From: Methanobacteriota archaeon
GTDB lineage: Archaea > Thermoplasmatota > Poseidoniia > Poseidoniales > Thalassarchaeaceae
Assembly: GCA_011523055.1 (NCBI GenBank)
Contig: WTHQ01000020.1
Span: 80,114 to 144,113 of the forward strand
Direction: 5' to 3'
DNA length: 64,000 nt
In this document: one piece after another, positions 6,292-60,763 of the stretch
Layout: every line of letters begins with the position of its first letter
Numbering within the stretch: the first letter of the stretch is position 1
Made by a program: the position numbers and the translations under genes
The notes under the pieces: model-generated
What the model saw: only the letters and a program-made list of their open reading frames with translations
Databases searched by the model: none
What the model was told of the DNA's origin: nothing

Positions 6292-7467
6292 TAATAGCCC
6301 ACAAATAAGTCCGGGCAACAGGGTGTGAACAGTGGCCCATAGTGAGGCGGTGCGATGACGTACCAAAAGTGGGAACAGGGCATCTCCGTCCTGAGAGATG
6401 GCATTCGCAACCAATGCCGGGAAGGAAAGAATTCCTTCAACGTAGGCAGTTATTGCAATGATTTGGGGCCCACACCCTGGAATTAGGCCGATGGTTGCAG
6501 CTACTGCTATTGCCCCAGGCCCGTCTCCATTGGTGGCTAGGTCGGATTCAGTCGCCCCAGTTGAAAGCAATAATCCCTCAAAGACCAGGTAGGCTGCTAG
6601 GACCCACGTCGTGACAAAGGCCGTCTCCGATGCGGCGTGGGTCAGCGTTTCATCAAACGAGTGAAGCTTGTCCCCAATAGTTGCCTCAGTGTCATCTGCG
6701 ATGAAGCTCTTCCCTGCGATGTACAATACCAAAGACAGTATCGTGCCAGCCACCCCCACAACAGTGAGAATTCCATCTCTTGTGGACAAATCCCATGACA
6801 GCTCAGGATTGTAACTAGGTTCCCTGGCCAACCAAAATATGAGTAGTACCCCAAGGATGAAGCCGACCATAGTGACTAGCCACCATAACTTGTACCCACT
6901 ATGGACTATCTTGTAGGACAGAGTGCCTGGTTCCTCCCTCGGTAAATTGGAGATGATGTCAGTCATCTCCTTTTTCTCACTCCGGTCCTCTAATGTTTGA
7001 ATCGCCAGATTTCGTTGTGTAATTTTGGGCTTCATTCCGAAGGGGCTTTCAGGTGTGATCATCAACAAATCAGCCCCATAGCCCCAGATCACCCCAGCTA
7101 GGAATGAAATTAGGTGAACGAGGATCACTGGGGCGAGGAATTGATTGTCTTGAATCGCTGCCCCGAACAAAACAAAGGCAGAATCCCCCAGGGTGGCAAT
7201 CAGGGTCGCCAATACAGTCCCGTAGGTGACATAGCCCTTCGCGAACATCGGCATCATGATGATTGCTCCACCGCAACCGGGAATCACGCCCATTAGTGCT
7301 CCGATGAGTGGTTGCCATCTCTTACTCGACCTGATCCAATCAACGAACTTTCCAGCGGTAAGGTACTGTAGCCAGCTGAAGAGGAGGACCATGACGGCGA
7401 CGAACACCGTGACGGCAAGAAACGCATCACGCATTGCAACCAGAATCGTCTCCAGCAGTGGGTTCAC
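6262..7467 (-). CDS. Polytopic membrane protein with two internal repeats, each carrying a conserved IPGCG motif. Permease/transporter of unknown substrate.
   Basis: 401-aa ORF, about 10 TM helices. Motifs GVIPGCGGAIIMMPMF and GLIPGCGPQIIAITAYVEG sit in the N- and C-terminal halves. Located inside the Mo-cofactor/XDH locus. Confidence 0.55.
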   Translation of the reverse strand: MNPLLETILVAMRDAFLAVTVFVAVMVLLFSWLQYLTAGKFVDWIRSSKRWQPLIGALMGVIPGCGGAIIMMPMFAKGYVTYGTVLATLIATLGDSAFVLFGAAIQDNQFLAPVILVHLISFLAGVIWGYGADLLMITPESPFGMKPKITQRNLAIQTLEDRSEKKEMTDIISNLPREEPGTLSYKIVHSGYKLWWLVTMVGFILGVLLIFWLAREPSYNPELSWDLSTRDGILTVVGVAGTILSLVLYIAGKSFIADDTEATIGDKLHSFDETLTHAASETAFVTTWVLAAYLVFEGLLLSTGATESDLATNGDGPGAIAVAATIGLIPGCGPQIIAITAYVEGILSFPALVANAISQDGDALFPLLVRHRTASLWATVHTLLPGLICGLLLLWVGVDFP

Positions 7468-7493: not shown

Positions 7494-8360
7494 ATGACTT
7501 CCCAATGGCTGCAGGAGAAAAAGTGCAAGAGCACCGACGCGGAGATGTTTTTTTTGGGATCAATGACTCTGAGGTGGGCGTTGCACCAATTGGATTTATG
7601 CAATACCGTAGCCATGGCCTCAATAATTGACTCGGATGGTAGCGTCCCTGCCAAAGTGGGGGCGAAATTGGCATTTTCCACCTCTGGAGACAGACATGGC
7701 ACAGTCGGAGGAGCCGGTCTGGAACTCAAAATCGAACACAGACTGAGATCGATACTCAATGGTTCCGAGGGGGGAATTGAGACCTTCGTCCTCTCCAAGT
7801 CATCTAGTGATCCTTCCACCACCAACCTAAACAGCCTCTGTGGTGGCCGGGTGACTGTGGCATTCGAGAGGTTGGATCCAAGCCCCCATATTCTACTGAT
7901 GGGTGGCGGCCACGTTGCAAAAGCCATCAGCGAGGCATGTGAACTCTTGGGATGGCGACATAGCGTCTTTGATGAACGTGGGGAATACGCGTCCTCAGAG
8001 TCATTCCCCGCCTCAGTAGAAAGAATCCATGCCAGCGCAGATGAGTTCCTTGAAATTGAGACTGCCACGTCACTCTCACGGTTTTCCGATATTCTCCTGC
8101 TCGGCCATGACTGGGCGATAGATCAGAAGCTGTTGATTGGGCTGCTGTCATATTCCGAGGATATTCCATGTAGGATAGGGTGCATAGGATCAAAGACCAA
8201 GTGGAGAGAATTCACAAAGTCAGCGAAAGGAGAGGGAGTTTCAGACGATCGTTTGGGTTTGGTCAGATGCCCAATCGGCGCCCCGATAGGAGCTGTGACC
8301 GTGGAGGAGATAGCATTCGCTGTCTGTGGCGAGATCATCTCGCTCATCAGGACCTCGTGA
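7494..8360 (+). CDS. XdhC/CoxI-family accessory protein (Mo-cofactor insertion/maturation for XDH-family enzymes)
   Basis: N-terminal XdhC_CoxI-like segment VAMASIIDSDGSVPAKVGAKLAFSTSGDRHGTVGGAGLE. Rossmann-like XdhC_C LLMGGGHVAKAISEACELLGWRHSVFDER. First ATG at 7494; the listed ORF start 7434 is TTG. Confidence 0.7.
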   Translation: MTSQWLQEKKCKSTDAEMFFLGSMTLRWALHQLDLCNTVAMASIIDSDGSVPAKVGAKLAFSTSGDRHGTVGGAGLELKIEHRLRSILNGSEGGIETFVLSKSSSDPSTTNLNSLCGGRVTVAFERLDPSPHILLMGGGHVAKAISEACELLGWRHSVFDERGEYASSESFPASVERIHASADEFLEIETATSLSRFSDILLLGHDWAIDQKLLIGLLSYSEDIPCRIGCIGSKTKWREFTKSAKGEGVSDDRLGLVRCPIGAPIGAVTVEEIAFAVCGEIISLIRTS

Positions 8361-47323: not shown

Positions 47324-49111
47324 ATGGACGTATCAATAAATGACTTCGTGATCAATGTCGCAACCGCCAACGGGACTGGTTCTCAGTCCTCGAACCTTAT
47401 TCTCCTCAACGCGCTGTTTGAGATGGGCGTTCCGGTGAGCGGAAAGAACTTATTCCCAAGCAACATATCCGGCCTTCCGACTTGGTTCATCATACGTGCA
47501 TCAGACAGAGGATACCAAGCGCCGGGGGACAAGACCGACATACAGGTCCTGATGAACCCCGACACCTGGTACAAGGACATCGAGAAGGTTGAATCCGGTT
47601 CTATAATCATCTTCAACGAGAACGTGAAGTTGCCAGTCGATCGTGATGATTGTCTAGTGTTTGGACTTCCGATGACCAAGCTAGCACGGTCCATAAGCCC
47701 GAAAATGGCGAAGATGATCGCGAACATGTATTATGTGGGCGTAATCCAGCACCTCGTTGGAATCGACCAAAGTGCTCTCGAAACGGCTGTGAATCGGCAA
47801 TTCAAAGGAAAGGCATCGGCTGTGGAGGTCAATCTGAGAGCAATAGATGAAGGCAGGAAGATTGCTCAGGAGGGCATCGAATGGCAATGCCCACATGCGG
47901 TCGAGGGGCGAGAAAAGGAGGAGGGGACGTTCCTGATTGAGGGAAACGAGGCTACTGCCCTAGGATCGATTTACGGAGGGATAAACATGCTCTCATGGTA
48001 CCCAATTACGCCTTCATCATCACTTGCGGAGGGCATCATCCACTGGCTTCCTGAGTTGAGGGGGACTGAGGACGGGAAGTCCACTTGCGCCGTGGTACAG
48101 GCCGAGGATGAGTTGGCGGCCGCTGGAATGGTGGTCGGTGCCGGATGGGCCGGTGGCAGGGGCATGACCTGTACCTCGGGCCCGGGCATCTCATTGATGT
48201 CGGAATTCATTGGTTTGGCATACTTCGCAGAGGTCCCAGGGGTGATCTGGGACGTAAACAGGGTCGGCCCGTCTACGGGGCTTCCAACAAGAACCCAACA
48301 AGGGGACTTGAACCTACTCAGAGAAGCGAGCCACGGGGACACGGAACACATCGTGTTGATTCCCGGCACAGTGGAGGAATGCTTTGAATTTGGGTGGAGG
48401 GCCTTCGACTATGCTGAGAGGTTCCAAACACTAGTGTTTGGCTTCTCGGACCTAGACCTGGGGATGAACAACTGGGTGTGCAGAGGTTTTGATTATCCTG
48501 ATGAGCAAATCGACCGGGGCAAGGTGGTAAGATCGGCCGAACAGATGGCCGCGATTGAGAACTATGGCAGATACAGGGACATCGATGGTGATGGGATTCC
48601 CTACAGAACCCTCCCCGGATCGGGCTTGGACCCGATCTTGTACAGAGGAACTGGGCATGACGAGGACGGGATCTACAGCGAGGACCCGGAAGTTTACAGA
48701 AAACTCATGATGCGGCTAAAGACTAAATTGTTCAATGCTAGGAAGGTGCTTCCTGCACCTGTGATCCGCGAGGAGCCCGAGGAGGATGTTGGCATAATCT
48801 ACATGGGGTCTATGGAGAACACTATCCAAGAGATTGACGACATGATCGAGGAAACAGGGCTGAAGGTGAGTCAATGTAGAGTCAGGGCACTGCCCCTTCA
48901 CCCAGACGTAGAGAAATTCATAGACAGCCACAACAAGGTGGTCGTTCTCGAGATAAACAGGGATGGGCAATTGTATGGTGTGCTGAGGAAGGAGCTCCCC
49001 ATAAATCTGGTACCAAAGATAACCAGCGTTGCATTTTCCGACGGGATGCCCCCGAGGGCCAGGATCTATTCGGACCTGATACTCGACGCACTTGTGGAGG
49101 TGGAATCATGA
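47324..49111 (+). CDS. korA: 2-oxoacid:ferredoxin oxidoreductase, alpha subunit (fused gamma-alpha type; KorA/OFOR)
   Basis: N-terminus DFVINVATANGTGSQSSNLILLNALFEMGVPVSGKNLFPSNISG. Domain I LIEGNEATALGSIYGGINMLSWYPITPSS. About 595 aa. Confidence 0.8.
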   Translation: MDVSINDFVINVATANGTGSQSSNLILLNALFEMGVPVSGKNLFPSNISGLPTWFIIRASDRGYQAPGDKTDIQVLMNPDTWYKDIEKVESGSIIIFNENVKLPVDRDDCLVFGLPMTKLARSISPKMAKMIANMYYVGVIQHLVGIDQSALETAVNRQFKGKASAVEVNLRAIDEGRKIAQEGIEWQCPHAVEGREKEEGTFLIEGNEATALGSIYGGINMLSWYPITPSSSLAEGIIHWLPELRGTEDGKSTCAVVQAEDELAAAGMVVGAGWAGGRGMTCTSGPGISLMSEFIGLAYFAEVPGVIWDVNRVGPSTGLPTRTQQGDLNLLREASHGDTEHIVLIPGTVEECFEFGWRAFDYAERFQTLVFGFSDLDLGMNNWVCRGFDYPDEQIDRGKVVRSAEQMAAIENYGRYRDIDGDGIPYRTLPGSGLDPILYRGTGHDEDGIYSEDPEVYRKLMMRLKTKLFNARKVLPAPVIREEPEEDVGIIYMGSMENTIQEIDDMIEETGLKVSQCRVRALPLHPDVEKFIDSHNKVVVLEINRDGQLYGVLRKELPINLVPKITSVAFSDGMPPRARIYSDLILDALVEVES

Positions 49112-50142
49112 GCAAAGTGATCAAACTCAACGTTATTGAAAGACCGAAGAGCGATTACACTGGAGGGGCTTCCTCCCTTTGCCCGGGCTGCGGTCACGAC
49201 CAGATCTCAGGGGTAATCATACAAGCGTGCTGGGAAAACGGCATAGAGCCTAGCAAAATAGCCAAGATGAGCGGCATCGGCTGTTCCTCCAAGACTCCGG
49301 CGTATTTCCTAGGGCAGTCACATGGATTCAACACAGTTCATGGCAGAATGCCATCGGTCACTACAGGTGCCAACATGGTCAACAAGGACCTAGTTTACCT
49401 CGGAGTGTCTGGAGACGGGGACTCCGCGAGCATCGGAATAGGGCAATTTATCCATGCCATCAGGAGGAACCTGAACATGGTCTACATCATCGAAAACAAT
49501 GGTGTATACGGCCTCACCAAGGGCCAGTATTCTGCCACGGTTGAGAAGGGCTCCAAGAAACGGAAAGGCTCGCCCAACGAGCAACCTCCAATTGACATGT
49601 GCAAATTGGCGATAAATCTTGGCTGCGGATTCGTTGCCCGCTCCTTCTCAGGGGCCAAGAAGCAGCTCACGGCACTGATGAAGGCCGCGCTCAGCCACAA
49701 CGGGATGGCAGTGATAGACGTCATCTCCCCCTGTGTTACATTCGCAAACAATGATGAGTCATACAAGTCATATGGATACGTCAAGGACCAAACTGAGGAG
49801 TTGCATGGTGTCGACTACATTCATCACTTCCAGCCCCTCAACGAAGTGGACATTCCAGAGGGGAGCTTCGAGGACGTCGAGTTGTTTGACGGCAGTGTAC
49901 TGAGGCTCGAGACCTTGTCCTCAGAATACGACCACAACGACCCGACTGCTGCAATAGTTGCCCTACATAGGGCCGAGATGGACAAGAAGCACATTACGGG
50001 ATTGCTCCATCACAATACGGACATGCCAACAGCGGACGAGGACCAGGGGCTTGTAGATACGCCTCTTTGTGACCTCAGTGAGGACATGCTGCGCCCAAGC
50101 AGGGCCAAGCATGAGGAACTGATGGCAAGGTTCCGGGCTTGA
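49108..50142 (+). CDS. korB: 2-oxoacid:ferredoxin oxidoreductase, beta subunit (TPP-binding; KorB)
   Basis: CPGCGHDQISG plus TPP-binding GIGCSSK...GDGDSASIG. ATGA start/stop overlap with korA. Confidence 0.8.
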   Translation: MSKVIKLNVIERPKSDYTGGASSLCPGCGHDQISGVIIQACWENGIEPSKIAKMSGIGCSSKTPAYFLGQSHGFNTVHGRMPSVTTGANMVNKDLVYLGVSGDGDSASIGIGQFIHAIRRNLNMVYIIENNGVYGLTKGQYSATVEKGSKKRKGSPNEQPPIDMCKLAINLGCGFVARSFSGAKKQLTALMKAALSHNGMAVIDVISPCVTFANNDESYKSYGYVKDQTEELHGVDYIHHFQPLNEVDIPEGSFEDVELFDGSVLRLETLSSEYDHNDPTAAIVALHRAEMDKKHITGLLHHNTDMPTADEDQGLVDTPLCDLSEDMLRPSRAKHEELMARFRA

Positions 50143-50190: not shown

Positions 50191-50266
50191 AGTCCCGTAG
50201 TGTAGTGGTCCATCATATGGCACTCTGGATGCCATGACCCTGGTTCGAATCCGGGCGGGACTACCA
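50191..50266 (+). tRNA. tRNA-Gln (anticodon CUG), CCA encoded
   Basis: AGUCCCGUAGUGUAGUGGUCCAUCAUAUGGCACUCUGGAUGCCAUGACCCUGGUUCGAAUCCGGGCGGGACUACCA. Acceptor AGUCCCG/CGGGACU, anticodon stem UGGCA/UGCCA with loop CUCUGGA, T-loop UUCGAAU. Confidence 0.7.
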
Positions 50267-51362: not shown

Positions 51363-51734
51363 TTAGTGTGATGCCAACGCGGATGCTAATCTCCAACCCC
51401 CCAGAGCCATAAATGGGCAGCCCAAGGCCGTAAAAGACATGTAAACCGCCATCGAAGCGATGCCAGTCGAGTTCCCGATCTCCAATGTTTGGAGCGCATA
51501 TGTGGACATTGTCGTGAATGACCCCAAGAGGCCGACTCCGATTAACTGAACAGATTCTTTTGAGGTGAGACCCAATGAGTAAGTCGCCATGATCGCACCC
51601 AACAGGAATGAGCCGATCAAATTGACAAATAACGTCGCAATGGGTGCCTGAGAGACAGGGGCGATCGAATCAGCGACCCACCTGAGGACGGCTCCGACGG
51701 ACCCTCCCAGAGCCACGAGGAAAACGCTATTCAC
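51363..51734 (-). CDS. crcB: Fluoride ion channel CrcB/Fluc
   Basis: 123 aa, 4 TM helices. Motifs GGSVGAVLRW and LGSFTTMSTY are typical of CrcB. Confidence 0.8.
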   Translation of the reverse strand: MNSVFLVALGGSVGAVLRWVADSIAPVSQAPIATLFVNLIGSFLLGAIMATYSLGLTSKESVQLIGVGLLGSFTTMSTYALQTLEIGNSTGIASMAVYMSFTALGCPFMALGGWRLASALASH

Positions 51735-51847
51735 AGATATAAAATGGGTGCGAGGAAAATAGAGGTTCCTGTTCTAGCCTTGTAGACAATTGGTCATGGA
51801 GGATTACAGCATTTCATTTGACAGGCGAATAACCCTTGACTGTGGAA

Positions 51848-53503
51848 ATGCACCCGAGGTTATCTGCCAGCCGGCAAGGAGGGGGGTTCCAATCCTTGCT
51901 TCGCGATGATGGAAGAGCCACCCCAAAAAGATGGGTATTCCTACTCTATGATCAGCTCAATCTGAACCTGCTACCCTTCGATGATTCTCCTCCTGAAGAG
52001 ACTGGGATACTCCTCATCGAGTCGACGGCCAAAGGCACTAGCCGGCCCTATCACAAGCAGAAGATAGCGATGCTGATATCCAACATGCGGCACTTCGCAA
52101 TCGAAGCGCAGAGCGAGGGTTACCCCGTTGCCTACCTCATGACCAAAGATTACTACTCTGTCGCGCTCGAAAAATTTGCCAGTGTTGGCAGCATCCATGT
52201 GATCAAGGCTGCAGAGAAGTCGACGCGTGATGAGTTGTCGCCTCTAATCGACTCTGGACTTCTCACGGTTCACCCACACAGGGGTTGGATTACCCCAATG
52301 AAATGGTTCATCGAGGCGGTAGGGGCAAAGCCACCCTACAGAATGGCGCCATTCTACCAGAAGTTCAGGCAAGAAACGGGTATATTGATGGATGGATCCA
52401 CCCCCATCGGAGGCAAATATTCGTTCGACTCAGAGAACAGGTCGCCCTGGGATGGAAAGCATGAGCTTCCAGAACCCCCTGTATATCCTAAGGATGACAT
52501 AGACCTGGAGGTGGAGTCCCTCATAGATTCGAAATTCTCAGGCCACCCTGGAAAGGCGGATCTCTCAGCCCTGCCAACAACGATTGATCAAGTCAATGCT
52601 GCCTTGGGGTACGCAATCTCAGTCCTACCCCTATTCGGAAGGTATGAGGATGCGATGACCGTGCACTCCAAGGGCCTGTTTCACAGCAGGTTGGCATCCC
52701 TGCTGAACCTAAGCAGACTACTCCCGAGGGATGTGCTCGATCGGGTGTTGAGTGCCGATGCACCTCTGAACAGCATCGAGGGGTTCGTGCGCCAGATTGT
52801 CTGGAGGGAATACGTCCACCACGTCCATGTAATCACCAATGGCTTTCAGGATATTGAGGTAAACAAGACACTCAACACAAGGAACGATGCCGGTTGGTGG
52901 GAATCCGACCACAACGGCAGTTACAGACGAAGCAGCCCGAACCACCTCAATCAGGACCGCTCACTACCGATGGCCTACTGGGGGGAGCAGTCCGGCCTGA
53001 ACTGCTTGGATCAGACCATCCAGTCTGTCATGGAGGACGGATGGACCCATCACATCCCTAGATTGATGGTGCAAAGCAACATTGCGAGTCTACTGGATGT
53101 TAATCCCAGGGAGCTCACTGATTGGTTCCACGCCTCTTTCATCGATGCATTTGACTGGGTTGTGGAGCCAAACGTTTTGGGGATGGGCACGTATGCATTA
53201 GGCGATGCCATGATGACTAAGCCATATGTCTCTGGAACGCCATACATAAATCGCATGGGGGATTATTGCAAATCCTGCTCCCTTGACCCGAGGAAAAGTT
53301 GCCCCATATCTTCGCTTTATTGGGCATACCTCGAACGCCATCGTAGCCATTTTGAAGGCAACTTCAGGATGTCAATGCCACTCAGAACGCTTTCAAAGCG
53401 ATCACACGACAAGAAATTCGAGGACCAAAGGGTGTTTGAGTCTGTTTACAGTAGTCTTCGTGCCGGCAAGGTTTGGAGACCTGAGGACCTCCCTCCCGTG
53501 TGA
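51848..53503 (+). CDS. Photolyase/cryptochrome-related protein of the FeS-BCP / DPRP type (possible (6-4) photolyase)
   Basis: Photolyase N-terminal fold KRWVFLLYDQLN. C-terminal Cys cluster YINRMGDYCKSCSLDPRKSCP resembles the [4Fe-4S] ligands of PhrB-like enzymes. First ATG at 51848 (the ORF TTG is at 51836). Confidence 0.55.
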   Translation: MHPRLSASRQGGGFQSLLRDDGRATPKRWVFLLYDQLNLNLLPFDDSPPEETGILLIESTAKGTSRPYHKQKIAMLISNMRHFAIEAQSEGYPVAYLMTKDYYSVALEKFASVGSIHVIKAAEKSTRDELSPLIDSGLLTVHPHRGWITPMKWFIEAVGAKPPYRMAPFYQKFRQETGILMDGSTPIGGKYSFDSENRSPWDGKHELPEPPVYPKDDIDLEVESLIDSKFSGHPGKADLSALPTTIDQVNAALGYAISVLPLFGRYEDAMTVHSKGLFHSRLASLLNLSRLLPRDVLDRVLSADAPLNSIEGFVRQIVWREYVHHVHVITNGFQDIEVNKTLNTRNDAGWWESDHNGSYRRSSPNHLNQDRSLPMAYWGEQSGLNCLDQTIQSVMEDGWTHHIPRLMVQSNIASLLDVNPRELTDWFHASFIDAFDWVVEPNVLGMGTYALGDAMMTKPYVSGTPYINRMGDYCKSCSLDPRKSCPISSLYWAYLERHRSHFEGNFRMSMPLRTLSKRSHDKKFEDQRVFESVYSSLRAGKVWRPEDLPPV

Positions 53504-53555: not shown

Positions 53556-55061
53556 ATGCAGGGCTACTCCAGTCGCACCCCCAGGGAGCCGCGACTTGCC
53601 TCGAGTGCAGTGATAACAAGGCTAATTGAAGGGGAGGGCAGGATGCTGATGGGCCTTAGGCACCCCGAGGTACCAACATTCCCTGGTTTCTGGGCCTTTC
53701 CAGGCGGTGGTGTCTCACGGCATGACAGGGAATACGCAGAGGGGGAACATTCAGCAGTCAACGAGAAGGATGGTGCTTGGCTAGTCGCCCTATTCAGGGA
53801 GCTGACCGAGGAGACCGGGTTCGCCTTCGGAGCCGATGGGCAATGGGGTTTGGTGAGTGATGACCTGAGAGATGGTCTCTGCAATAAGGGTTTGATCTGG
53901 GCTCATGCGGTTGAACAGGGGTTGTTCAGCGTTGACTTTGGATTGGCCTCACTCGTTACCGAGCGGACCACGCCCCCTCTCGCTCCCGTTCGTTACACCA
54001 ACAGATTCTACCACATTGACTTCGGAAATTTCGCCTTAGAGCCCAAGCAACCCCCAGGGAGGAGTGAATTTACTCGATTCAAGTGGTGGGCCCCTGAAGA
54101 ATTGCTATCTGAGTGGGAAAAGGGGGAGGCGAAGATGGCCCCCCCGCAGGTCACCTTCGTCAGGGACATAATCAAGGGGATGGTCGAGGGAAAGGGTATG
54201 ATCGGATCATTATCCGAGATGTCTGAACTCCCTCCGAGGGGACCCCATAAAATCGAATTTGCACCGGGTGTAGAGTGCCTACCAATACCAACTGCCACAC
54301 TACCCCCAGCTACACACACCAATTGTTTCATTATCGGCAGGGGGGCGGAAGTTTTAGTCGTAGATCCAGCGGTTCAAAACCAAGAGGGCTTTGAAATTCT
54401 CGAGCGAAGATTGTCGGAACTTCGAGAGGACGGGAAGACTTTGCGAGGGGCACTTTACACCCACAGGCACCCTGACCACATAGGTGACCAAACTATGGTT
54501 CGTAGGTTGATAGATCAGCAGATTTTCGGGACTGCTGAAACAATTGAGGAGCTGGGGGCAGGGACCTTGATCAGGGATGGTCAGACCATCGACCTCTCAG
54601 ACGGGCATCCATGGACTGTGATTGAGACCCCTGGACACTGTCCTGGCATGGTCTCGCTTGCCTCAGGGGTTGGCACCATATCCGCTGACAACGTTACCAT
54701 GGTTGGAACGATTCTAGTTCCTTCGAAAGAAGGCTCAATGACTCAATACATGGAAAGTCTTCAGCGTCTGATGGCTATCGATCCAAAGCTGCTTTTTCCA
54801 AGCCATGGCCCTGTTTGCGCTTCGCCAAGGAGGTTGCTTGACAGGACTTACAAACATCGTCAACAACGGCATGAGAAAGTACTTGAAGCGATACAGGAAG
54901 GTAATACAAGGCTTGCAGACATCGCGAAAGAGGCCTACAAAGACGCACCAGATGCCCCAATTATGTTATCGGAAGACCAGACGCTGTCCCACATCATGGG
55001 CTTGATTGAGCAAGGTCTTGTGGCCAAATCAGCCGAGGGTTACCGCCCTACTAATCACTAA
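53556..55061 (+). CDS. Fusion protein: N-terminal NUDIX hydrolase domain plus C-terminal metallo-beta-lactamase-fold hydrolase domain
   Basis: Nudix box GGGVSRHDREYAEGEHSAVNEKDGAWLVALFRELTEETGF (REx2EExG). MBL motifs LYTHRHPDHIGD (HxHxDH), VIETPGHCPGMVS, LLFPSHGP. Confidence 0.7.
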   Translation: MQGYSSRTPREPRLASSAVITRLIEGEGRMLMGLRHPEVPTFPGFWAFPGGGVSRHDREYAEGEHSAVNEKDGAWLVALFRELTEETGFAFGADGQWGLVSDDLRDGLCNKGLIWAHAVEQGLFSVDFGLASLVTERTTPPLAPVRYTNRFYHIDFGNFALEPKQPPGRSEFTRFKWWAPEELLSEWEKGEAKMAPPQVTFVRDIIKGMVEGKGMIGSLSEMSELPPRGPHKIEFAPGVECLPIPTATLPPATHTNCFIIGRGAEVLVVDPAVQNQEGFEILERRLSELREDGKTLRGALYTHRHPDHIGDQTMVRRLIDQQIFGTAETIEELGAGTLIRDGQTIDLSDGHPWTVIETPGHCPGMVSLASGVGTISADNVTMVGTILVPSKEGSMTQYMESLQRLMAIDPKLLFPSHGPVCASPRRLLDRTYKHRQQRHEKVLEAIQEGNTRLADIAKEAYKDAPDAPIMLSEDQTLSHIMGLIEQGLVAKSAEGYRPTNH

Positions 55062-55155: not shown

Positions 55156-56079
55156 ATGTCGACCAAAGGCAATGGCTATCTCCGGATTTCAATTAATCGA
55201 TGTCTGATCACAAATACGGAGGCTAGTGAAATGGACGACCCTTGGAAGTCAATGCCAAACGACCGTGGCTTTGAATCAGAGTCCCGAATGGTGGAAGTTG
55301 AGGATGGATGGCGCCTACGAGTTATCACTTGCAAACCGCTCACCAAGCAAAACAACCCTCCAGTCGTAATGGTCCCGGGTTGGAACAGCGTTTTCGAAGG
55401 CTGGAGGGAAATCATTGAGGCATGGGCACCCTCGAGAATGATTATCTACATCGAGACCAGAGAAAAGGGGAGTGCAGAATCAACCAGGGAGTCGAGTAGG
55501 TCGACAATGTCCATAGGCCAGAGTGTCCAGGACCTCAAGACACTCGCCTCGAAACTACCTGAAATGAGTTCAGAGTGTGATTTTTTCGCCTCCTCGCTGG
55601 GTGCAACCGTACTTCTGGAGGCATTGGCCATGGGGGCTCTCAACGCCAGGAGCGTGTCCTTGTTGGCCCCGAACATAAGCTTCGACTTCCCGTTGTGGAG
55701 TAGGCCCCTCATTGCGATGCCCAGCTTCCTTTATCCTCCGCTCATTCGAGCAGCCATTCTCTACCTAAATCTGAGATTGAAGGATGATGGGCAAAAGATC
55801 CGGTATCGTAGAACGCTGCTCGCTTCCAACGTGAAGCGGCTTCGGCTGAGTGCCCTTTCGAATGGGTCCTACAAAATGAGTGTCGACCTAACCAGAATAA
55901 ATTCCAGAATAGCACTGATCACTGCGGAGTCGGACACGCTCCACGCAGGAAGTGCAGTAGGATTCTTGGCCGAGAAACTACCGAACGCAACTACAATAGA
56001 GGTTCCAAGCAACCAGTTCGCCCACGACAGGGAAATTATTCCGATTTTGGAGGCCTTCCAGGATGATCAGAGGTCCTAG
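55156..56079 (+). CDS. Alpha/beta-fold hydrolase
   Basis: VVMVPGWNSVFEGW plus nucleophile-elbow-like FASSLGATV. 307 aa. Confidence 0.5.
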   Translation: MSTKGNGYLRISINRCLITNTEASEMDDPWKSMPNDRGFESESRMVEVEDGWRLRVITCKPLTKQNNPPVVMVPGWNSVFEGWREIIEAWAPSRMIIYIETREKGSAESTRESSRSTMSIGQSVQDLKTLASKLPEMSSECDFFASSLGATVLLEALAMGALNARSVSLLAPNISFDFPLWSRPLIAMPSFLYPPLIRAAILYLNLRLKDDGQKIRYRRTLLASNVKRLRLSALSNGSYKMSVDLTRINSRIALITAESDTLHAGSAVGFLAEKLPNATTIEVPSNQFAHDREIIPILEAFQDDQRS

Positions 56080-56146
56080 AACCCCCCTTCATCGAAGCAT
56101 CCAGAAGTTGAGATTATACGGTGGCTGCTTCGAAGATCACACAGGC

Positions 56147-59100
56147 ATGAGACACAGCGGGGCGAAACAGGCGGTTTTTCTATCCCTCCTGATTATAATT
56201 ATGGACGCGTCTGCAGGAGCGTCGATTCTCACTGAGGATCTTTCGACACAAGACGATCAATGCGCCTCTTCCGATTGTAGCCCTGATTTCTTTAGCTCAT
56301 TCGAAATGCCCGTGGACGCTAGTGAGCCCGTCGAGGAGCCTGGTTGGTGGCTATCCTATGGCTATGACCACAACTCTGATGGGATGGATGATCGTCTGGA
56401 GAATATAATCAACGGCTCTTCAGAGTCAATCTCCCCAACTTCAGTTTTGGCCCCAGATGGCAGAATGACTGTCGCAATAGTCGTAAACTACGCTTGGCAC
56501 CCCGGAAACTCGGACACAGAGGCATTGAAATCGACCCTGCGAGGACATGGATGGATCTCAGAGGGATCCTTCTTCTTCAACGTGGACATCTTGGATTCGA
56601 TTCTCGTGGACAGAGTCCCAGTGTCAGCTTTGAATGACGTGCTTTCCCTTGATGGAGTGGTTCTGATCGAACAACAGAACGTACTGGAACCTTACCTGGA
56701 TATCGCAACCAAGGCCTCCAAAGTTCGAGTTAGTGATGTCTACCCGCAGTCATTCTGGAGCAATGGATACATGGGGGACGGTGTTGTGATCGCCATCTTG
56801 GATACGGGCGTGGACAACGAACACTTCTCACTGGATGACTTTTCAGACGCCAATCAAGACAATGAAAATGCCCCAAGCGACCTAAATGACCCAAAATGGG
56901 TGGCTGGATGTGACGCGACCTCGAGCAATCAAGTCGAATGCTCTGACGGGAATTTCGATCCTGACGACGGAGATGGCCACGGGACCCACGTGGCCGGGAT
57001 CGCATTGGGGACGGGCGACTCAGACCGCGAAAACATAGGTTATTCCCCTGGTTCATATCTAGTTGACGTTAAGGTCCTGAACGACATTGGGACCACAAAC
57101 TCCGGTGCGACCATCAAGGGAATAAATTGGGTTGCGAACAACGTCGACACCGACTGGGGCAACAATGAATCAAGCAGGGGGATCGATGTCATGTCCATGT
57201 CGTTTGGTTCCATAAATTCCCCCGGAGGCGACGGCCAAGGGGATGATGGGCAGAACGCAGATGCGCGAGCAGTTAACGCCGCAGTGGATGCCGGTGTCGT
57301 TGCTGTGGCGGCTATAGGCAACGACGGGCAAAACAGGGTAACGTCGGTCGGTGCTGCTGACAAGGCGATCACAGTGGGCTCTATTGATGATGATGACTCA
57401 ATCAGCAGGGAGGATGACAGTATAGCCTCCTATTCAAACTACGGTCCTCGAACAGACGATGGAGATAATGACTTCCAAGATGAGTTGAAGCCTGATGTCG
57501 TTGGACCAGGTAGCGGCATAATTTCTGCGGAGTACGCGCCACTAAACCCACTACCAGTTGGGGACCAACCCAGGGCCTCTGATGGCTATACGAGCAAAGA
57601 CGGAACGAGCATGGCCTGCCCTGCAGTCGCTGGCCTGGCAGCCCTCCTCCTCTCCTACGACGGTGACCTCACGCCAGAGGATGTGAAGAATATCATCAAA
57701 GAGACTGCTGAACAAAGGGGGGATGCCAGTGCCCCCTCGATAGACGATAGATGGAACAACCAGTATGGTTACGGCATAGTCGATGGCGAGGCTGCTTTTC
57801 GCTGTGTGATAGGTGGTGAATGCACCCAGATCACAGGCGGGGCAGAATGGGTCCATGTTCAATCCCCGTCAAGGGGGGATTGGTTGGTCCAGGGCAGAAA
57901 CTACTCATTCAGCGGCATACTGAATGAAAGCGACCCTGGTACTTTCGGAATTCAGGCGGTTGAGATAAGCGCAGAACTCAGCTACAAGAAACAGAAGCCG
58001 AATGGAAAGATCGAATCGATTAAGTCAATACTCGTAAACACAACGAACGTAACACTAGTCGAAGGCAGGTGGTCGACCATAGTACCAATTCCTGAGATAG
58101 ACGTTAATGACTACTACGGTGCCGATGTCAAGCTCAAGGCAACGGCCACAAATGAGTCTGGAAGAAGGAGTCAGACCAACGTGAGTTTGCACCCCATCGG
58201 CTTCCTTGACATTGGGATATCCGAGCCAGAGCAGGACTCAACTGCCTCAGGCTCGATGGCGGTCAGAGGATCCTACTCGACTGTCGATGGGGGGGTTATC
58301 AGATGGAAGATCGATGACGGGAGTTGGGTCGATGGGCCCACGCTCTCGGACCAGAATCTCAATCGGAGCGGATATACGGGTGAGTTCCAATTCTCAATTG
58401 ACTCCGAAGAGTACGAGGAGGGCGAGCACGACCTTTTCCTCCAGATTGTGTCCGGCGATGGGTTCCTAAGCCAAGTTGGACGGAGAACGATAGATATTGA
58501 CAACTACCCTCCTCGTCCGAACCTTATTTTGATGGATAGCGTTCAGGTTACCGACTATGGCATTCCGATAAGTGAATCCCGTGTCGGCTCTTACCTCGAG
58601 GTCAGGGGAGAGGTCAGAAACGAGGGAGACATCGGCGCGAATGACATCCTGGTATCACTCTATGAGAATGGACAACGGAGATTCGAGACCTCGATAGAGA
58701 AGATATCCGTAGGTGAACAAGTGCCCTTCATACTGTATTGGAGCCCGTCCATCCCTGGGACCAAGGACGTCAAGGTGGTAATCGACCACTTGAACTCCAT
58801 AGAGGAGCTCGACGAATCCGACAACACGATTTCTCTCGACTTCGAGATTATACCATTGGCAGATGGAGTAGACATCGATGTGTTGGACGGCGGGGTGTTC
58901 ACAACGCCCAGCATACCCACGCCGAGTGATCAGTTCATTCTCAGCACCATGATAAAAAATCAGGGCTCTGAAGACGCCGCCTCCATCGAAGTCACATTTT
59001 ACTCGATGGAGGAAGGTGGCATTGGATGGCTGCCCGTCGCGTCAAGGTCGCTTTCGATGCTCCCCTCCGGCCAGGCCGTGATAATTGAGTTCCCAGTCCC

Positions 59101-60763
59101 CGGTAACGGACCCGGTGTAATGAACTACAGATTCACTGCTTCGGGGCCGGAATTGGCTGACGAAGATTGGTCCAACAACGAGTTAGAGGGTTCCATCGTA
59201 ATCGAAGACTCCCAGGTGAATTCTAGACCAGCCCGAATTGCCCAACCTGAAACGCCACTTGCGGTGATGTCTTTTCGGGAAACTGGCGTAATTCTCGCCT
59301 CAGAGGGAACTCAGATAATCGTTTACAAAATCCAGGAGGATGGGGAAACAGTTCGATGCAGCACCCCTCTCGAAAGATTCTGGAGCGGGTCGATCTCAAC
59401 TACCGTGGATGATGGAGGCTTGGCACACGTTGTTTGGACGCGCAGGCTGGTCACGGGCACAGGGGTATTGAGCGAGACGGTCTCATACGCCACGATAGAC
59501 GACCAATGCTCCTCCACGGTTCCACAAGACCTCATGAATCCACTTCCAATGAATCTGGGGGACTACTTCGGGGTTGACCTAGATGAGGATGACGGGAGGA
59601 TCATCATAGCCGGATATCTCCGTGACATAGCGAGTGGATCACTTTTCGAACCCTCTGAGTCAATTTTCATCCTTGAGGGCAACGAGCCCCAATCAGCAAG
59701 TGAGTGGAGCCTCACCGAGAACGTAATTCAAGGAATTGACACCATGTCTCAAAGTGAAGCGCCAATAGAAGTTGAAATCGGGGATGAGTTGGTTCATCTC
59801 ATCTACATGTCTTCGAGGAACGACACCTCCTCAGTACCTGTCCTCGGCCTGTGGTACGCGCATGGGCTCGAGGGGGCAGGTTCCTGGAATTACAAACGGG
59901 CTATCGCCGTCCAAGGATCTTCGCCCTCAATGGCTGTGACCAATGTGGAGGGGGACGACAGGGTTTCCATCGTTTGGTTCGAAGGCGAGCCAGACAAATC
60001 TACGCTGAATGCAATGATAGTGGATGAGAGCTTCAACATCATCAACGGGGCTTCTGTCTCCATCATGGCACGAGGGGGGGAGTACGCAAAGATCTCTCAG
60101 CGAGGTGACATACTGTTTCTCACATACGACCATGTCACCCCCGTCGGACGCGTGGTAAGCCTGGGCGTGATCGATCCAAACGAGGGGTGGATCGGGATTG
60201 GGAACAGGGTGTCCACGGGGAGTGCCTTCGCTGCCTCTGCCGCTTCGGATGGCTTGGTATTTCCCTTCATGGTCCGAACCACCTCTGGCGATTGGGTCTC
60301 GATTGAAATTTCGAGTAACGGCAATTTGGATGACGGCCCGAGTAATATTTTTGAGAGTGCGAGGATGGCCCTTGGGCTGAACGAGAATGAATTCAACCTG
60401 CTTCTGATGGGGCTCGCAACCGCGCTGTTGATGATTTTGGTCTCCCTCTTGATCGGGACGGTGAGACAAGGGCTCTCTAACATGAGGGACAAAAGAAGGT
60501 CCGCCTCGGTTGTAATTGAGACTGATCCCGAGGATGCGCTGGATATCGATCAAGACGAAGTGGAGGAAGTTTCACCGACTTTAATCTCACCAACACTCGA
60601 GGGGGCGTTTACAGCCGAACCTTTGCCTCCTCCGCCTTTGGATCCGAGCGATCCCTACAGAACTGTGATTTGCGATGCCTGCGGTACGAGGTTCGAGCTG
60701 CTCAGGAAAATTATGAAGACGACGTGCCCATCCTGCGGTGAGCGGGTCGAGGACTTCCGATGA
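56147..60763 (+). CDS. Giant (about 1539 aa) membrane-anchored subtilisin-like serine protease (peptidase S8) with multiple beta-rich accessory domains, a C-terminal TM helix and a cytoplasmic C4 zinc-ribbon tail
   Basis: Signal MRHSGAKQAVFLSLLIIIMDASAGAS. Catalytic triad motifs AILDTGVD, HGTHVAGI, GTSMACPAVAGLAALL. TM LLLMGLATALLMILVSLLIG. Tail CDACGTRFELLRKIMKTTCPSCGERVEDFR. Confidence 0.8.
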   Translation: MRHSGAKQAVFLSLLIIIMDASAGASILTEDLSTQDDQCASSDCSPDFFSSFEMPVDASEPVEEPGWWLSYGYDHNSDGMDDRLENIINGSSESISPTSVLAPDGRMTVAIVVNYAWHPGNSDTEALKSTLRGHGWISEGSFFFNVDILDSILVDRVPVSALNDVLSLDGVVLIEQQNVLEPYLDIATKASKVRVSDVYPQSFWSNGYMGDGVVIAILDTGVDNEHFSLDDFSDANQDNENAPSDLNDPKWVAGCDATSSNQVECSDGNFDPDDGDGHGTHVAGIALGTGDSDRENIGYSPGSYLVDVKVLNDIGTTNSGATIKGINWVANNVDTDWGNNESSRGIDVMSMSFGSINSPGGDGQGDDGQNADARAVNAAVDAGVVAVAAIGNDGQNRVTSVGAADKAITVGSIDDDDSISREDDSIASYSNYGPRTDDGDNDFQDELKPDVVGPGSGIISAEYAPLNPLPVGDQPRASDGYTSKDGTSMACPAVAGLAALLLSYDGDLTPEDVKNIIKETAEQRGDASAPSIDDRWNNQYGYGIVDGEAAFRCVIGGECTQITGGAEWVHVQSPSRGDWLVQGRNYSFSGILNESDPGTFGIQAVEISAELSYKKQKPNGKIESIKSILVNTTNVTLVEGRWSTIVPIPEIDVNDYYGADVKLKATATNESGRRSQTNVSLHPIGFLDIGISEPEQDSTASGSMAVRGSYSTVDGGVIRWKIDDGSWVDGPTLSDQNLNRSGYTGEFQFSIDSEEYEEGEHDLFLQIVSGDGFLSQVGRRTIDIDNYPPRPNLILMDSVQVTDYGIPISESRVGSYLEVRGEVRNEGDIGANDILVSLYENGQRRFETSIEKISVGEQVPFILYWSPSIPGTKDVKVVIDHLNSIEELDESDNTISLDFEIIPLADGVDIDVLDGGVFTTPSIPTPSDQFILSTMIKNQGSEDAASIEVTFYSMEEGGIGWLPVASRSLSMLPSGQAVIIEFPVPGNGPGVMNYRFTASGPELADEDWSNNELEGSIVIEDSQVNSRPARIAQPETPLAVMSFRETGVILASEGTQIIVYKIQEDGETVRCSTPLERFWSGSISTTVDDGGLAHVVWTRRLVTGTGVLSETVSYATIDDQCSSTVPQDLMNPLPMNLGDYFGVDLDEDDGRIIIAGYLRDIASGSLFEPSESIFILEGNEPQSASEWSLTENVIQGIDTMSQSEAPIEVEIGDELVHLIYMSSRNDTSSVPVLGLWYAHGLEGAGSWNYKRAIAVQGSSPSMAVTNVEGDDRVSIVWFEGEPDKSTLNAMIVDESFNIINGASVSIMARGGEYAKISQRGDILFLTYDHVTPVGRVVSLGVIDPNEGWIGIGNRVSTGSAFAASAASDGLVFPFMVRTTSGDWVSIEISSNGNLDDGPSNIFESARMALGLNENEFNLLLMGLATALLMILVSLLIGTVRQGLSNMRDKRRSASVVIETDPEDALDIDQDEVEEVSPTLISPTLEGAFTAEPLPPPPLDPSDPYRTVICDACGTRFELLRKIMKTTCPSCGERVEDFR

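Follow-up and report, generated by a model that had tools for sequence, protein, structure and literature searches.

A NUDT19-like Nudix hydrolase fused to a LACTB2-like metallo-beta-lactamase-fold hydrolase in Marine Group II archaea and bacteria

Why would one polypeptide carry a Nudix active site and a metallo-beta-lactamase (MBL) active site, and what would it do with both? The question is raised by a gene in a 64,000-nucleotide stretch of contig WTHQ01000020.1 (assembly GCA_011523055.1) from an archaeon of the Thalassarchaeaceae, hereafter the window. An initial annotation, made from the sequence without database searches, had described the gene as encoding a 501-residue chain with a Nudix domain followed by an MBL fold. 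We find that it encodes a predicted bifunctional hydrolase with two active sites that belongs to a widespread family. Selection acts on both active sites, and each half can be assigned clearly to a subfamily. The component kinds of enzyme are already known; what is new is the joining of a NUDT19-like and a LACTB2-like enzyme in one protein.

Our literature search found no paper describing or assaying a Nudix-MBL fusion, and the only text found to bring NUDT19 and LACTB2 together was an inventory of the zebrafish peroxisome, which mentions both separately. In databases the family goes under automated names that are generic or inconsistent: 'MBL fold metallo-hydrolase', 'endoribonuclease LACTB2', 'glyoxylase-like…/8-oxo-dGTP pyrophosphatase' and 'hydroxyacylglutathione hydrolase'. 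As labels for the fusion family, 'MBL fold metallo-hydrolase', 'hydroxyacylglutathione hydrolase' and '8-oxo-dGTP pyrophosphatase' say little or are probably incorrect.

One chain, two active sites

The gene is a single open reading frame (ORF) of 501 residues that begins with ATG and runs on without an internal stop, and a Shine-Dalgarno-like GGAG lies 3-6 nt before the start codon (Table 1). In the window protein Pfam recognizes NUDIX at residues 18-89 (23.4 bits; cutoff 21.1) and Lactamase_B at residues 253-417 (E 6e-17). The Nudix core RELTEETG occupies residues 81-88, and the MBL motifs said to form a complete set are all present (HRHPDH 303-308, TPGHCPG 358-364, SHG 416-418). Reading frame, domains and motifs thus bear out the description of a single two-domain chain. 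To the MBL set can be added D378, which brings the metal ligands to seven (H303, H305, D307, H308, H361, D378 and H417). All these motifs and D378 are invariant in 31 archaeal homologues of 40-69% identity, and the catalytic residues of both domains are also invariant in 11 bacterial homologues. The full-length AlphaFold (AF2) model is confident and compact with two domains (predicted local distance difference test, pLDDT, 86.7; predicted template modelling score, pTM, 0.85). No solved structure covering both domains was found, the best match reaching 271 aligned residues with TM(query) at or below 0.48.

The same layout is found well beyond the window. A 501-residue protein with 99% identity (P0001) lies on six independent contigs of a 'Euryarchaeota archaeon' metagenome-assembled genome, and the next matches are hundreds of homologues of 470-530 residues named Poseidoniales or Thalassarchaeaceae. 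The Poseidoniales are an order of Thermoplasmatota that we take to be Marine Group II (MGII), one of the most abundant archaeal groups of the surface ocean; the records of some relatives are titled 'Marine group II euryarchaeote'. When one genome per GTDB species was scanned, 403 species genomes had a relative, and the best 80 of the 403 were all Poseidoniales. A family profile searched against 1.84 billion 50%-identity representatives returned 785 representative clusters at E<=1e-30, and the best 150 of these were nearly all about 500 residues long, with alignments over the full length. Scores exceed 440 bits for about ten MGII clusters; the long series of lower-scoring clusters, at 230-300 bits, is bacterial, with members from Calditrichota, 'Deltaproteobacteria', Eisenbacteria, Myxococcota (including the cultured Hyalangium gracile, P0361) and Acidobacteriota/Blastocatellia. 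The precomputed Pfam architecture of the bacterial members is NUDIX, Lactamase_B and a PF17778 winged helix. The two-domain order, which the initial annotation proposed to look for in databases, is thus shared by hundreds of 50%-identity clusters.

Could the chain nevertheless be an artefact, that is, a pseudogene or two adjacent genes merged by an error in assembly or sequencing? Breaks between the halves do occur in two metagenomic contigs, as an in-frame stop in L108 (~6453-6499) and a frameshift in L163 (~1194-1316). These breaks may stem from sequencing errors or mark pseudogenes or rare true splits. However, the two halves share a single frame at 81 of 81 archaeal and 47 of 49 bacterial loci, those contigs being the two exceptions. 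The initial annotation had named domains split by a stop or frameshift in related genomes as the sign of two ordinary genes; this is not the pattern observed. Also against an artefact are the six independent contigs with the 99%-identical protein, the compact two-domain model and the highly conserved domain junction. The junction (…IEF.PGV…P.PT.TLPPATHTN) is among the best-conserved segments of the protein, with G229, H231, E234, V239, E240, P245, T246, T248, P250, P251, T253, H254, T255 and C257 invariant and TLPPATHTN kept in bacteria too. An artefact is so improbable that it can be set aside, and the fusion is ancient or repeatedly retained. Its long retention in MGII and in several bacterial phyla is a strong argument for functional coupling of the two activities.

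The family also has members with other layouts. In the 1149-residue P0229 from Eisenbacteria, annotated 'aminopeptidase P family N-terminal domain-containing', the Nudix-MBL unit makes up the N-terminal ~500 residues, and in the 731-residue P0145 the unit follows a trypsin-like N-terminal region. Homologues with only the MBL and winged-helix parts, 37-43% identical to the C-terminal half, occur on seven metagenomic contigs (L132, L135, L145, L156, L161, L164 and L168), with no NUDT19-like Nudix gene found within 6 kb of them.

Subfamilies of the two halves

The N-terminal half has the Nudix alpha/beta/alpha fold (PF00293). Its Nudix box, which had been called intact, is so only in part. The REL-TEE-TG core is present, and the whole REUXEEXGU half of the box (R81-E82-L-T-E85-E86-T-G88-F89) is invariant in archaea and bacteria, but the box is interrupted: it reads G51-x5-D57-x23-R81E82xxE85E86xG88 against the canonical GX5EX7REUXEEXGU. 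The first Glu is replaced by Asp57 and about 16 residues are inserted, so the protein departs from the canonical GX5EX7RE. G50, G51, D57, R81, E82, E85, E86 and G88 are invariant in archaeal and bacterial members. The insertion and the variant residue make the Pfam match short and borderline. Since Gx5D and an insertion at this site are also found in NUDT19, an active enzyme, the variant box is compatible with catalysis. E171, an acidic residue downstream of the box, may serve as catalytic base or metal ligand.

Pairwise BLAST of the N-domain with NUDT19 is marginal (E 0.003, ~22% identity), and a profile-profile comparison was therefore needed to establish the relationship. A NUDT19 sequence served as bait to retrieve database proteins and for nothing else; ten aligned orthologues named 'acyl-coenzyme A diphosphatase NUDT19' were then compared with the fusion N-domain by hhalign, which gave Prob 99.5% and E 3.5e-22 over 192 columns. 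On this profile evidence the N-terminal half belongs to the NUDT19 family. The shared features include Gx5D, with D71 invariant in NUDT19 at the place of D57 here, a helical insert, TP..R(F/Y) and PPQ motifs, and a NuCoA-like segment ending in FPGG. The box insertion lies at the same site in both and measures 45-49 residues in NUDT19 (PMC12894707), ~16 in the window protein and 5-35 across the fusion family. NUDT19, a peroxisomal acyl-coenzyme A (CoA)/CoA diphosphatase of vertebrates also called RP2p, stands alone with a C-terminal extension and a type 1 peroxisomal targeting signal (PTS1), whereas here the Nudix domain is fused to an MBL. Also unlike the fusion, the related 3QSJ from Alicyclobacillus acidocaldarius, a structural-genomics entry, is a stand-alone single-domain protein of 232 residues; its function is listed as 'undetermined' by Srouji et al. 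2017.

After 3qsj, the next-best sequence matches in the PDB (E ~1e-5 to 1e-4) include the CoA diphosphatases 1nqz, NUDT11 and NUDT7 among MutT-type entries. The alignments with 1nqz, NUDT11 and NUDT7 span the NuCoA-like segment. The MutT-type matches (E ~1e-5) cover only the generic Nudix box, and a MutT or 8-oxo-dGTPase identity of the N-domain was rejected. The NuCoA motif is LLTxR[SA]x3Rx3Gx3FPGG. In the window protein the segment reads L-M-G-L-R35-H-PEV-P40-TFP-G44-FWA-FPGG, with R35, P40, F48, P49, G50 and G51 conserved and R35 and FPGG invariant.

By both sequence and structure, the closest relative of the MBL half is LACTB2. It is followed by TTHA1429 (PDB 2ZO4), three Burkholderia structural-genomics proteins (5I0P, 5U8O and 6AO1) and a Bacillus 'paraoxonase' (8ZXG), which unlike the fusion are single-domain proteins and whose functions are nominal at most. 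Literature searches turned up nothing relevant on the 'paraoxonase', from Bacillus S3wahi, and no assigned function for TTHA1429. The fusion MBL and LACTB2 have in common the di-zinc ligand set, a helical/winged-helix extension at the C-terminus, an HRxxR patch and a Y..P motif; LACTB2 lacks the Nudix domain. In the window protein, residues 424-498 can be aligned with the C-terminal domains of LACTB2 and TTHA1429 and are modelled by AF2 as helices and a hairpin. PF17778 is precomputed for the bacterial homologues, and Pfam gives no PF17778 match on the window protein at E<=0.01. Taken together, the alignments place the C-terminal part in the LACTB2 subfamily, as a predicted binuclear-metal MBL with a winged-helix tail.

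Which MBL subgroup was involved had been left as a check, with glyoxalase II, RNase Z/CPSF and alkylsulfatase as candidates; the answer is none of these but the LACTB2 type, within the glyoxalase-II branch. The glyoxalase-II group of MBLs includes LACTB2-type proteins (PMC4819959) and comprises both thioesterases (HAGH and the acyl-CoA thioesterase MBLAC2) and RNases (LACTB2 and MBLAC1) (PMC7949124). A nuclease of the RNase Z/beta-CASP kind was rejected, the beta-CASP domain being absent; RNase J reaches E 1e-8 only, with motif 2 alone aligned. An alkylsulfatase was likewise rejected, as neither its dimerisation and SCP2 domains nor a close structural match was found. The best NCBIfam matches are GloB models, well under their equivalog cutoffs (TIGR03413, 45.5 against 200.8 bits; the GloB model PRK10241, 35.6 bits against 421), and with LACTB2 and TTHA1429 much closer, glyoxalase II proper was rejected too. 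GloB/HAGH, MBLAC2 and PqsE share the branch and the metal ligands with the fusion MBL, and the TPGHAPGH of bacterial fusions resembles the TPGHTxGH of GloB. They are nevertheless more distant than LACTB2 and lack its type of winged-helix tail, and the fusion scores below their family cutoffs.

Some differences set the MGII proteins apart. An invariant Cys stands beside the motif-3 ligand in MGII (GHCPG), where bacteria have GHAPGH and LACTB2 has GHTDD. D474/Q475, which align with H259/N260 of LACTB2, are specific to MGII and invariant there, and bacteria have R-S at this place.

Table 1. Position of the gene, its domains and motifs, and genes nearby, in window coordinates.
Feature	Position	Strand	Remark
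Two-domain hydrolase gene, complete with stop codon	53556..55061	+	ORF list; 99%-identical database protein P0001
Nudix domain, NUDT19/3QSJ subfamily, residues ~12-226	53589..54233	+	Accessory helices at 100-130
NuCoA-like segment before Nudix box, L31-MGLRHPEVPTFPGFWAFPG-G51	53646..53708	+	Aligns with Deinococcus radiodurans CoA pyrophosphatase 1nqz
Interrupted Nudix box, G51-x5-D57-(23 aa)-R81ELTEETGF89	53706..53822	+	Core RELTEETG at 53796-53819
E171, downstream acidic residue	54066..54068	+	Invariant across 18 archaeal and bacterial N-domains
Domain junction and first MBL strand, GPHKIEFAPGVECLPIPTATLPPATHTNC	54240..54326	+	Highly conserved
MBL-fold domain, LACTB2 type, residues ~232-421	54249..54818	+	
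MBL motif 2, H303-R-H305-P-D307-H308, metal ligands	54462..54479	+	Invariant
MBL motif 3, G-H361-C362-P-G	54633..54647	+	Cys362 invariant in MGII, Ala in bacteria
MBL motif 4, D378, bridging ligand	54687..54689	+	Invariant; aligns with LACTB2 D164 (PMC4770246)
MBL motif 5, H417 of SHG	54804..54806	+	Invariant
C-terminal helical/winged-helix domain, residues ~424-498	54825..55049	+	Aligns with LACTB2 ~205-277
H434-R435-x-x-R438 patch	54855-54869	+	Invariant in archaea and bacteria
Downstream neighbour, 307 aa, divergent alpha/beta-hydrolase-like	55156..56079	+	Abhydrolase_6 E 0.1; ASSLG nucleophile-elbow-like motif
DPRP/FAD_binding_7 (FeS-BCP-type) photolyase-like gene	51836-53503	+	Pfam
CrcB fluoride-channel gene	51363-51734	-	
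2-oxoacid:ferredoxin oxidoreductase (OFOR) beta gene	49108-50142		
tRNA-Gln(CTG)	50191-50266		
1566-aa subtilisin-like protein	56063-60763		

What the fusion may hydrolyse

The function we favour, tentatively and at somewhat less than an even chance, is sequential hydrolysis of CoA-type substrates, pyrophosphate then thioester. Like NUDT19, the Nudix domain would cleave the diphosphate of CoA or acyl-CoA to 3',5'-ADP and (acyl-)4'-phosphopantetheine. The MBL domain would then hydrolyse a second labile bond in the same substrate or product, most likely the thioester of acyl-CoA or of S-acyl-phosphopantetheine, and the HRxxR patch on the first C-terminal helix could bind a phosphate of the substrate. 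The net outcome would be the release of recyclable phosphopantetheine. Which substrates are used, in what order they are cut and to what end in the cell are all inferred.

Several lines of evidence lead to this view. NUDT19, the only characterised relative of the N-domain, has a validated physiological activity as a CoA/acyl-CoA diphosphohydrolase (PMC12894707; PMC8919083). Thioester hydrolysis is the dominant chemistry of the glyoxalase-II branch (HAGH, MBLAC2 and PqsE), and MBLAC2, PqsE and glyoxalase II are precedents for thioester or acyl-CoA hydrolysis on an MBL fold (PMC7949124). NUDT19 is peroxisomal, and LACTB2 has a predicted PTS1 and has been found in peroxisome proteomes, so the two may co-localise in animal peroxisomes (PMC8919083). 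Both domains are net acidic, and with net charge as a crude proxy for electrostatics this is easier to reconcile with a small-molecule substrate than with a long RNA. Fusions tend to join consecutive metabolic steps, and this general tendency also favours a two-step hydrolysis of CoA compounds. Of the two kinds of substrate proposed in the initial annotation, nucleotide-linked or CoA/thioester-linked, the latter thus gains from a NUDT19-family Nudix domain and a glyoxalase-II-branch MBL, while the nucleotide side retains a hint from bacterial partner genes (below).

A number of observations weigh against CoA-type substrates. In the middle of the NuCoA motif Pro40 takes the place of R/K, as Pro does in 1nqz, and G44 of the segment is Asp or Glu in most MGII members. 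By fold alone the N-domain is equally near to CoA diphosphatases and to other Nudix enzymes. The MBL half is not a glyoxalase II proper, and its sole assayed close relative, LACTB2, is a reported endoribonuclease whose RNA-binding residues recur in the fusion. The bacterial neighbourhood, sampled in eight look-ups and 80 metagenomic loci by targeted tblastn and unbiased clustering of flanking ORFs, likewise points elsewhere. The clustering found no recurrent CoA, pantothenate or lipid genes beside bacterial fusions, and some of the partner genes are suggestive of nucleotides or RNA. The commonest partner is a SAMHD1/EF1143-like HD nucleotide hydrolase (~430 aa; PDB 2hek E 3.5e-35, SAMHD1 ~3e-22), encoded directly upstream on the same strand at 9 of 37 loci. 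Downstream of the fusion at two acidobacterial loci is the gene for a stand-alone protein of ~170 residues, homologous to the polynucleotide 5'-kinase domain of Pnkp, an RNA-repair enzyme (TIGR04075 E 4e-46; PDB 4gp6 E 2e-40).

The main rival explanation, which is possible though doubtful, takes the Pnkp-kinase homologue as one of its clues. It holds that the Nudix domain removes a cap-like group (dephospho-CoA (dpCoA), NAD or triphosphate) to leave a 5'-monophosphate and that the LACTB2-like MBL then cuts the RNA endonucleolytically, assisted by the winged-helix tail and the HRxxR patch. It is the sole model that accepts both homology-based annotations at face value. NUDT19 strips dpCoA, 7-methylguanosine (m7G) and G caps from RNA in vitro (PMC7337524), although such decapping is an in-vitro activity common to many Nudix proteins. 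Winged-helix domains often bind nucleic acids. In LACTB2, H216, R217 and R220 are needed for RNA binding and N116 and E118 for RNase activity (PMC4770246); transferred by pairwise alignment, the former are conserved as H434, R435 and R438, but N116 aligns with Ala and E118 with a gap. The net acidic charge of both domains also tells against RNA, and the Pnkp-kinase pairing, found at 2 related loci of ~38 with enough downstream sequence, is not that of a general partner. Decay by RppH or NudC with RNase E or J offers a functional analogy, since there too a Nudix enzyme acts first, on the 5' end, and where RNase J is involved the nuclease that follows has an MBL fold. However, these are separate proteins, the beta-CASP domain of RNase J is absent here, and the homology is at superfamily level only. 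To our knowledge the prokaryotic decapping Nudix enzymes RppH and NudC are not fused to RNases, which also counts against RNA as the substrate.

Two further explanations are less probable. Nucleotide-pool sanitation or catabolism, in which the Nudix domain would act on aberrant (deoxy)nucleoside triphosphates or ADP-linked nucleotides alongside dNTP triphosphohydrolases and the MBL would be a phosphodiesterase on products such as 3',5'-ADP or small oligonucleotides, is unlikely. The HD gene upstream in bacteria would suit it, and automated JGI names include '8-oxo-dGTP pyrophosphatase'; yet the HD pairing is missing in MGII and in most bacterial loci, and the N-domain is specifically of the NUDT19/3QSJ type. 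We know of no MBL enzymes that are phosphomonoesterases, which is a further point against it. The initial annotation had thought a damaged-nucleotide sanitation role conceivable in view of the FeS-BCP photolyase-like gene, 52 nt upstream of the fusion. That gene is confirmed by Pfam, but a photolyase-like gene adjoins the fusion at only 3 of 80 related MGII loci, and in the window it comes with an inserted CrcB gene; its adjacency is incidental and lends no support to a DNA-damage role. More improbable still is glyoxalase-II-type detoxification, with the MBL hydrolysing S-lactoyl (2-hydroxyacyl) thioesters of the organism's low-molecular-weight thiol, the Nudix domain auxiliary or regulatory, and a divergent aldo-keto reductase (AKR) in the same methylglyoxal pathway. 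The GloB models are the best NCBIfam matches and GloB structures match well, one myxobacterial member is called 'hydroxyacylglutathione hydrolase' by NCBI, and an AKR gene is divergently adjacent at 60 of the 80 MGII loci. Against this stand the sub-cutoff GloB scores and the greater nearness of LACTB2 and TTHA1429. The invariance of the Nudix catalytic residues argues that this domain is not a degenerate regulatory module. Moreover, CrcB and the photolyase-like gene separate AKR from the fusion in the window, and AKR is no partner in bacteria.

The separate human NUDT19 and LACTB2 may work together, and the fusion could be a 'Rosetta stone' indicating that NUDT19-type Nudix and LACTB2-type MBL enzymes act in one pathway, either in processing CoA products or in decay of CoA-capped RNA; we regard this as a speculative possibility. 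If the former holds, LACTB2-type proteins would be the missing hydrolases for the acyl-phosphopantetheine or 3',5'-ADP released by CoA diphosphatases. Human LACTB2, which with its predicted PTS1 could be found alongside NUDT19 in peroxisomes, would then have its physiological role reassigned or extended. If the latter holds, the fusion would be a dedicated machine for decay of CoA-capped RNA, the first in archaea and bacteria. The biology of the human counterparts is unsettled: LACTB2 has a single activity defined in vitro, that of an endoribonuclease, and we know of no work that settles the fate of the products of NUDT19 and NUDT7. As a single, easily expressed protein, the fusion offers a way to probe the coupling of NUDT19 and LACTB2.

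Genes around the fusion

Among the 80 MGII loci the conserved order runs from OFOR-beta through the divergent AKR gene and the fusion to a gene for an alpha/beta-hydrolase-like protein. The last of these is the commonest conserved same-strand neighbour in MGII (69 of 80 loci, 17-2300 bp downstream), and in many Thalassarchaeaceae it lies 8-60 bp from the fusion (8 bp in L084). No significant PDB or Pfam match was found for the 307-residue product in the window. In many members of MGII it may be co-transcribed with the fusion, and it could be part of one system with it. A role of the fusion in anti-phage defence was rejected, as PADLOC gives no match for the window protein and the gene lies in a syntenic housekeeping region.

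In the window the CrcB and photolyase-like genes sit between AKR and the fusion, where in other MGII loci AKR is ~140 bp from the fusion gene. CrcB is present at 9 of the 80 loci. The two genes seem to have been inserted, in this lineage only, into an otherwise conserved syntenic block.

In bacteria, the HD gene (L081 4715-6004, L088 3716-5008, and also L100, L107, L111, L115, L117, L119 and L126) overlaps the start codon of the fusion in Myxococcota, and the overlap, 4-8 bp long, suggests that the two are translationally coupled. The Pnkp-kinase homologues of Acidobacteriota lie directly downstream (L086 6479-6988; L082 8180-8722, here with an AF2212-like/PIN toxin-antitoxin pair at 7524-8091 in between). 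Other recurrent bacterial neighbours are generic, namely a MoxR-like AAA+ gene with one for a von Willebrand factor A (vWA) protein, a Mo-oxidoreductase and a methyltransferase.

Two further features of the window were noted. The tRNA-Gln(CTG) gene lies between the OFOR-beta and AKR genes and is overlapped by several spurious ORFs. Downstream of the fusion, the start of the subtilisin-like gene overlaps the end of the 307-aa gene by 17 nt; its product has a predicted membrane segment followed by a CxxC…CxxC zinc-ribbon-like tail, and it is present only in the 10 closest related loci.

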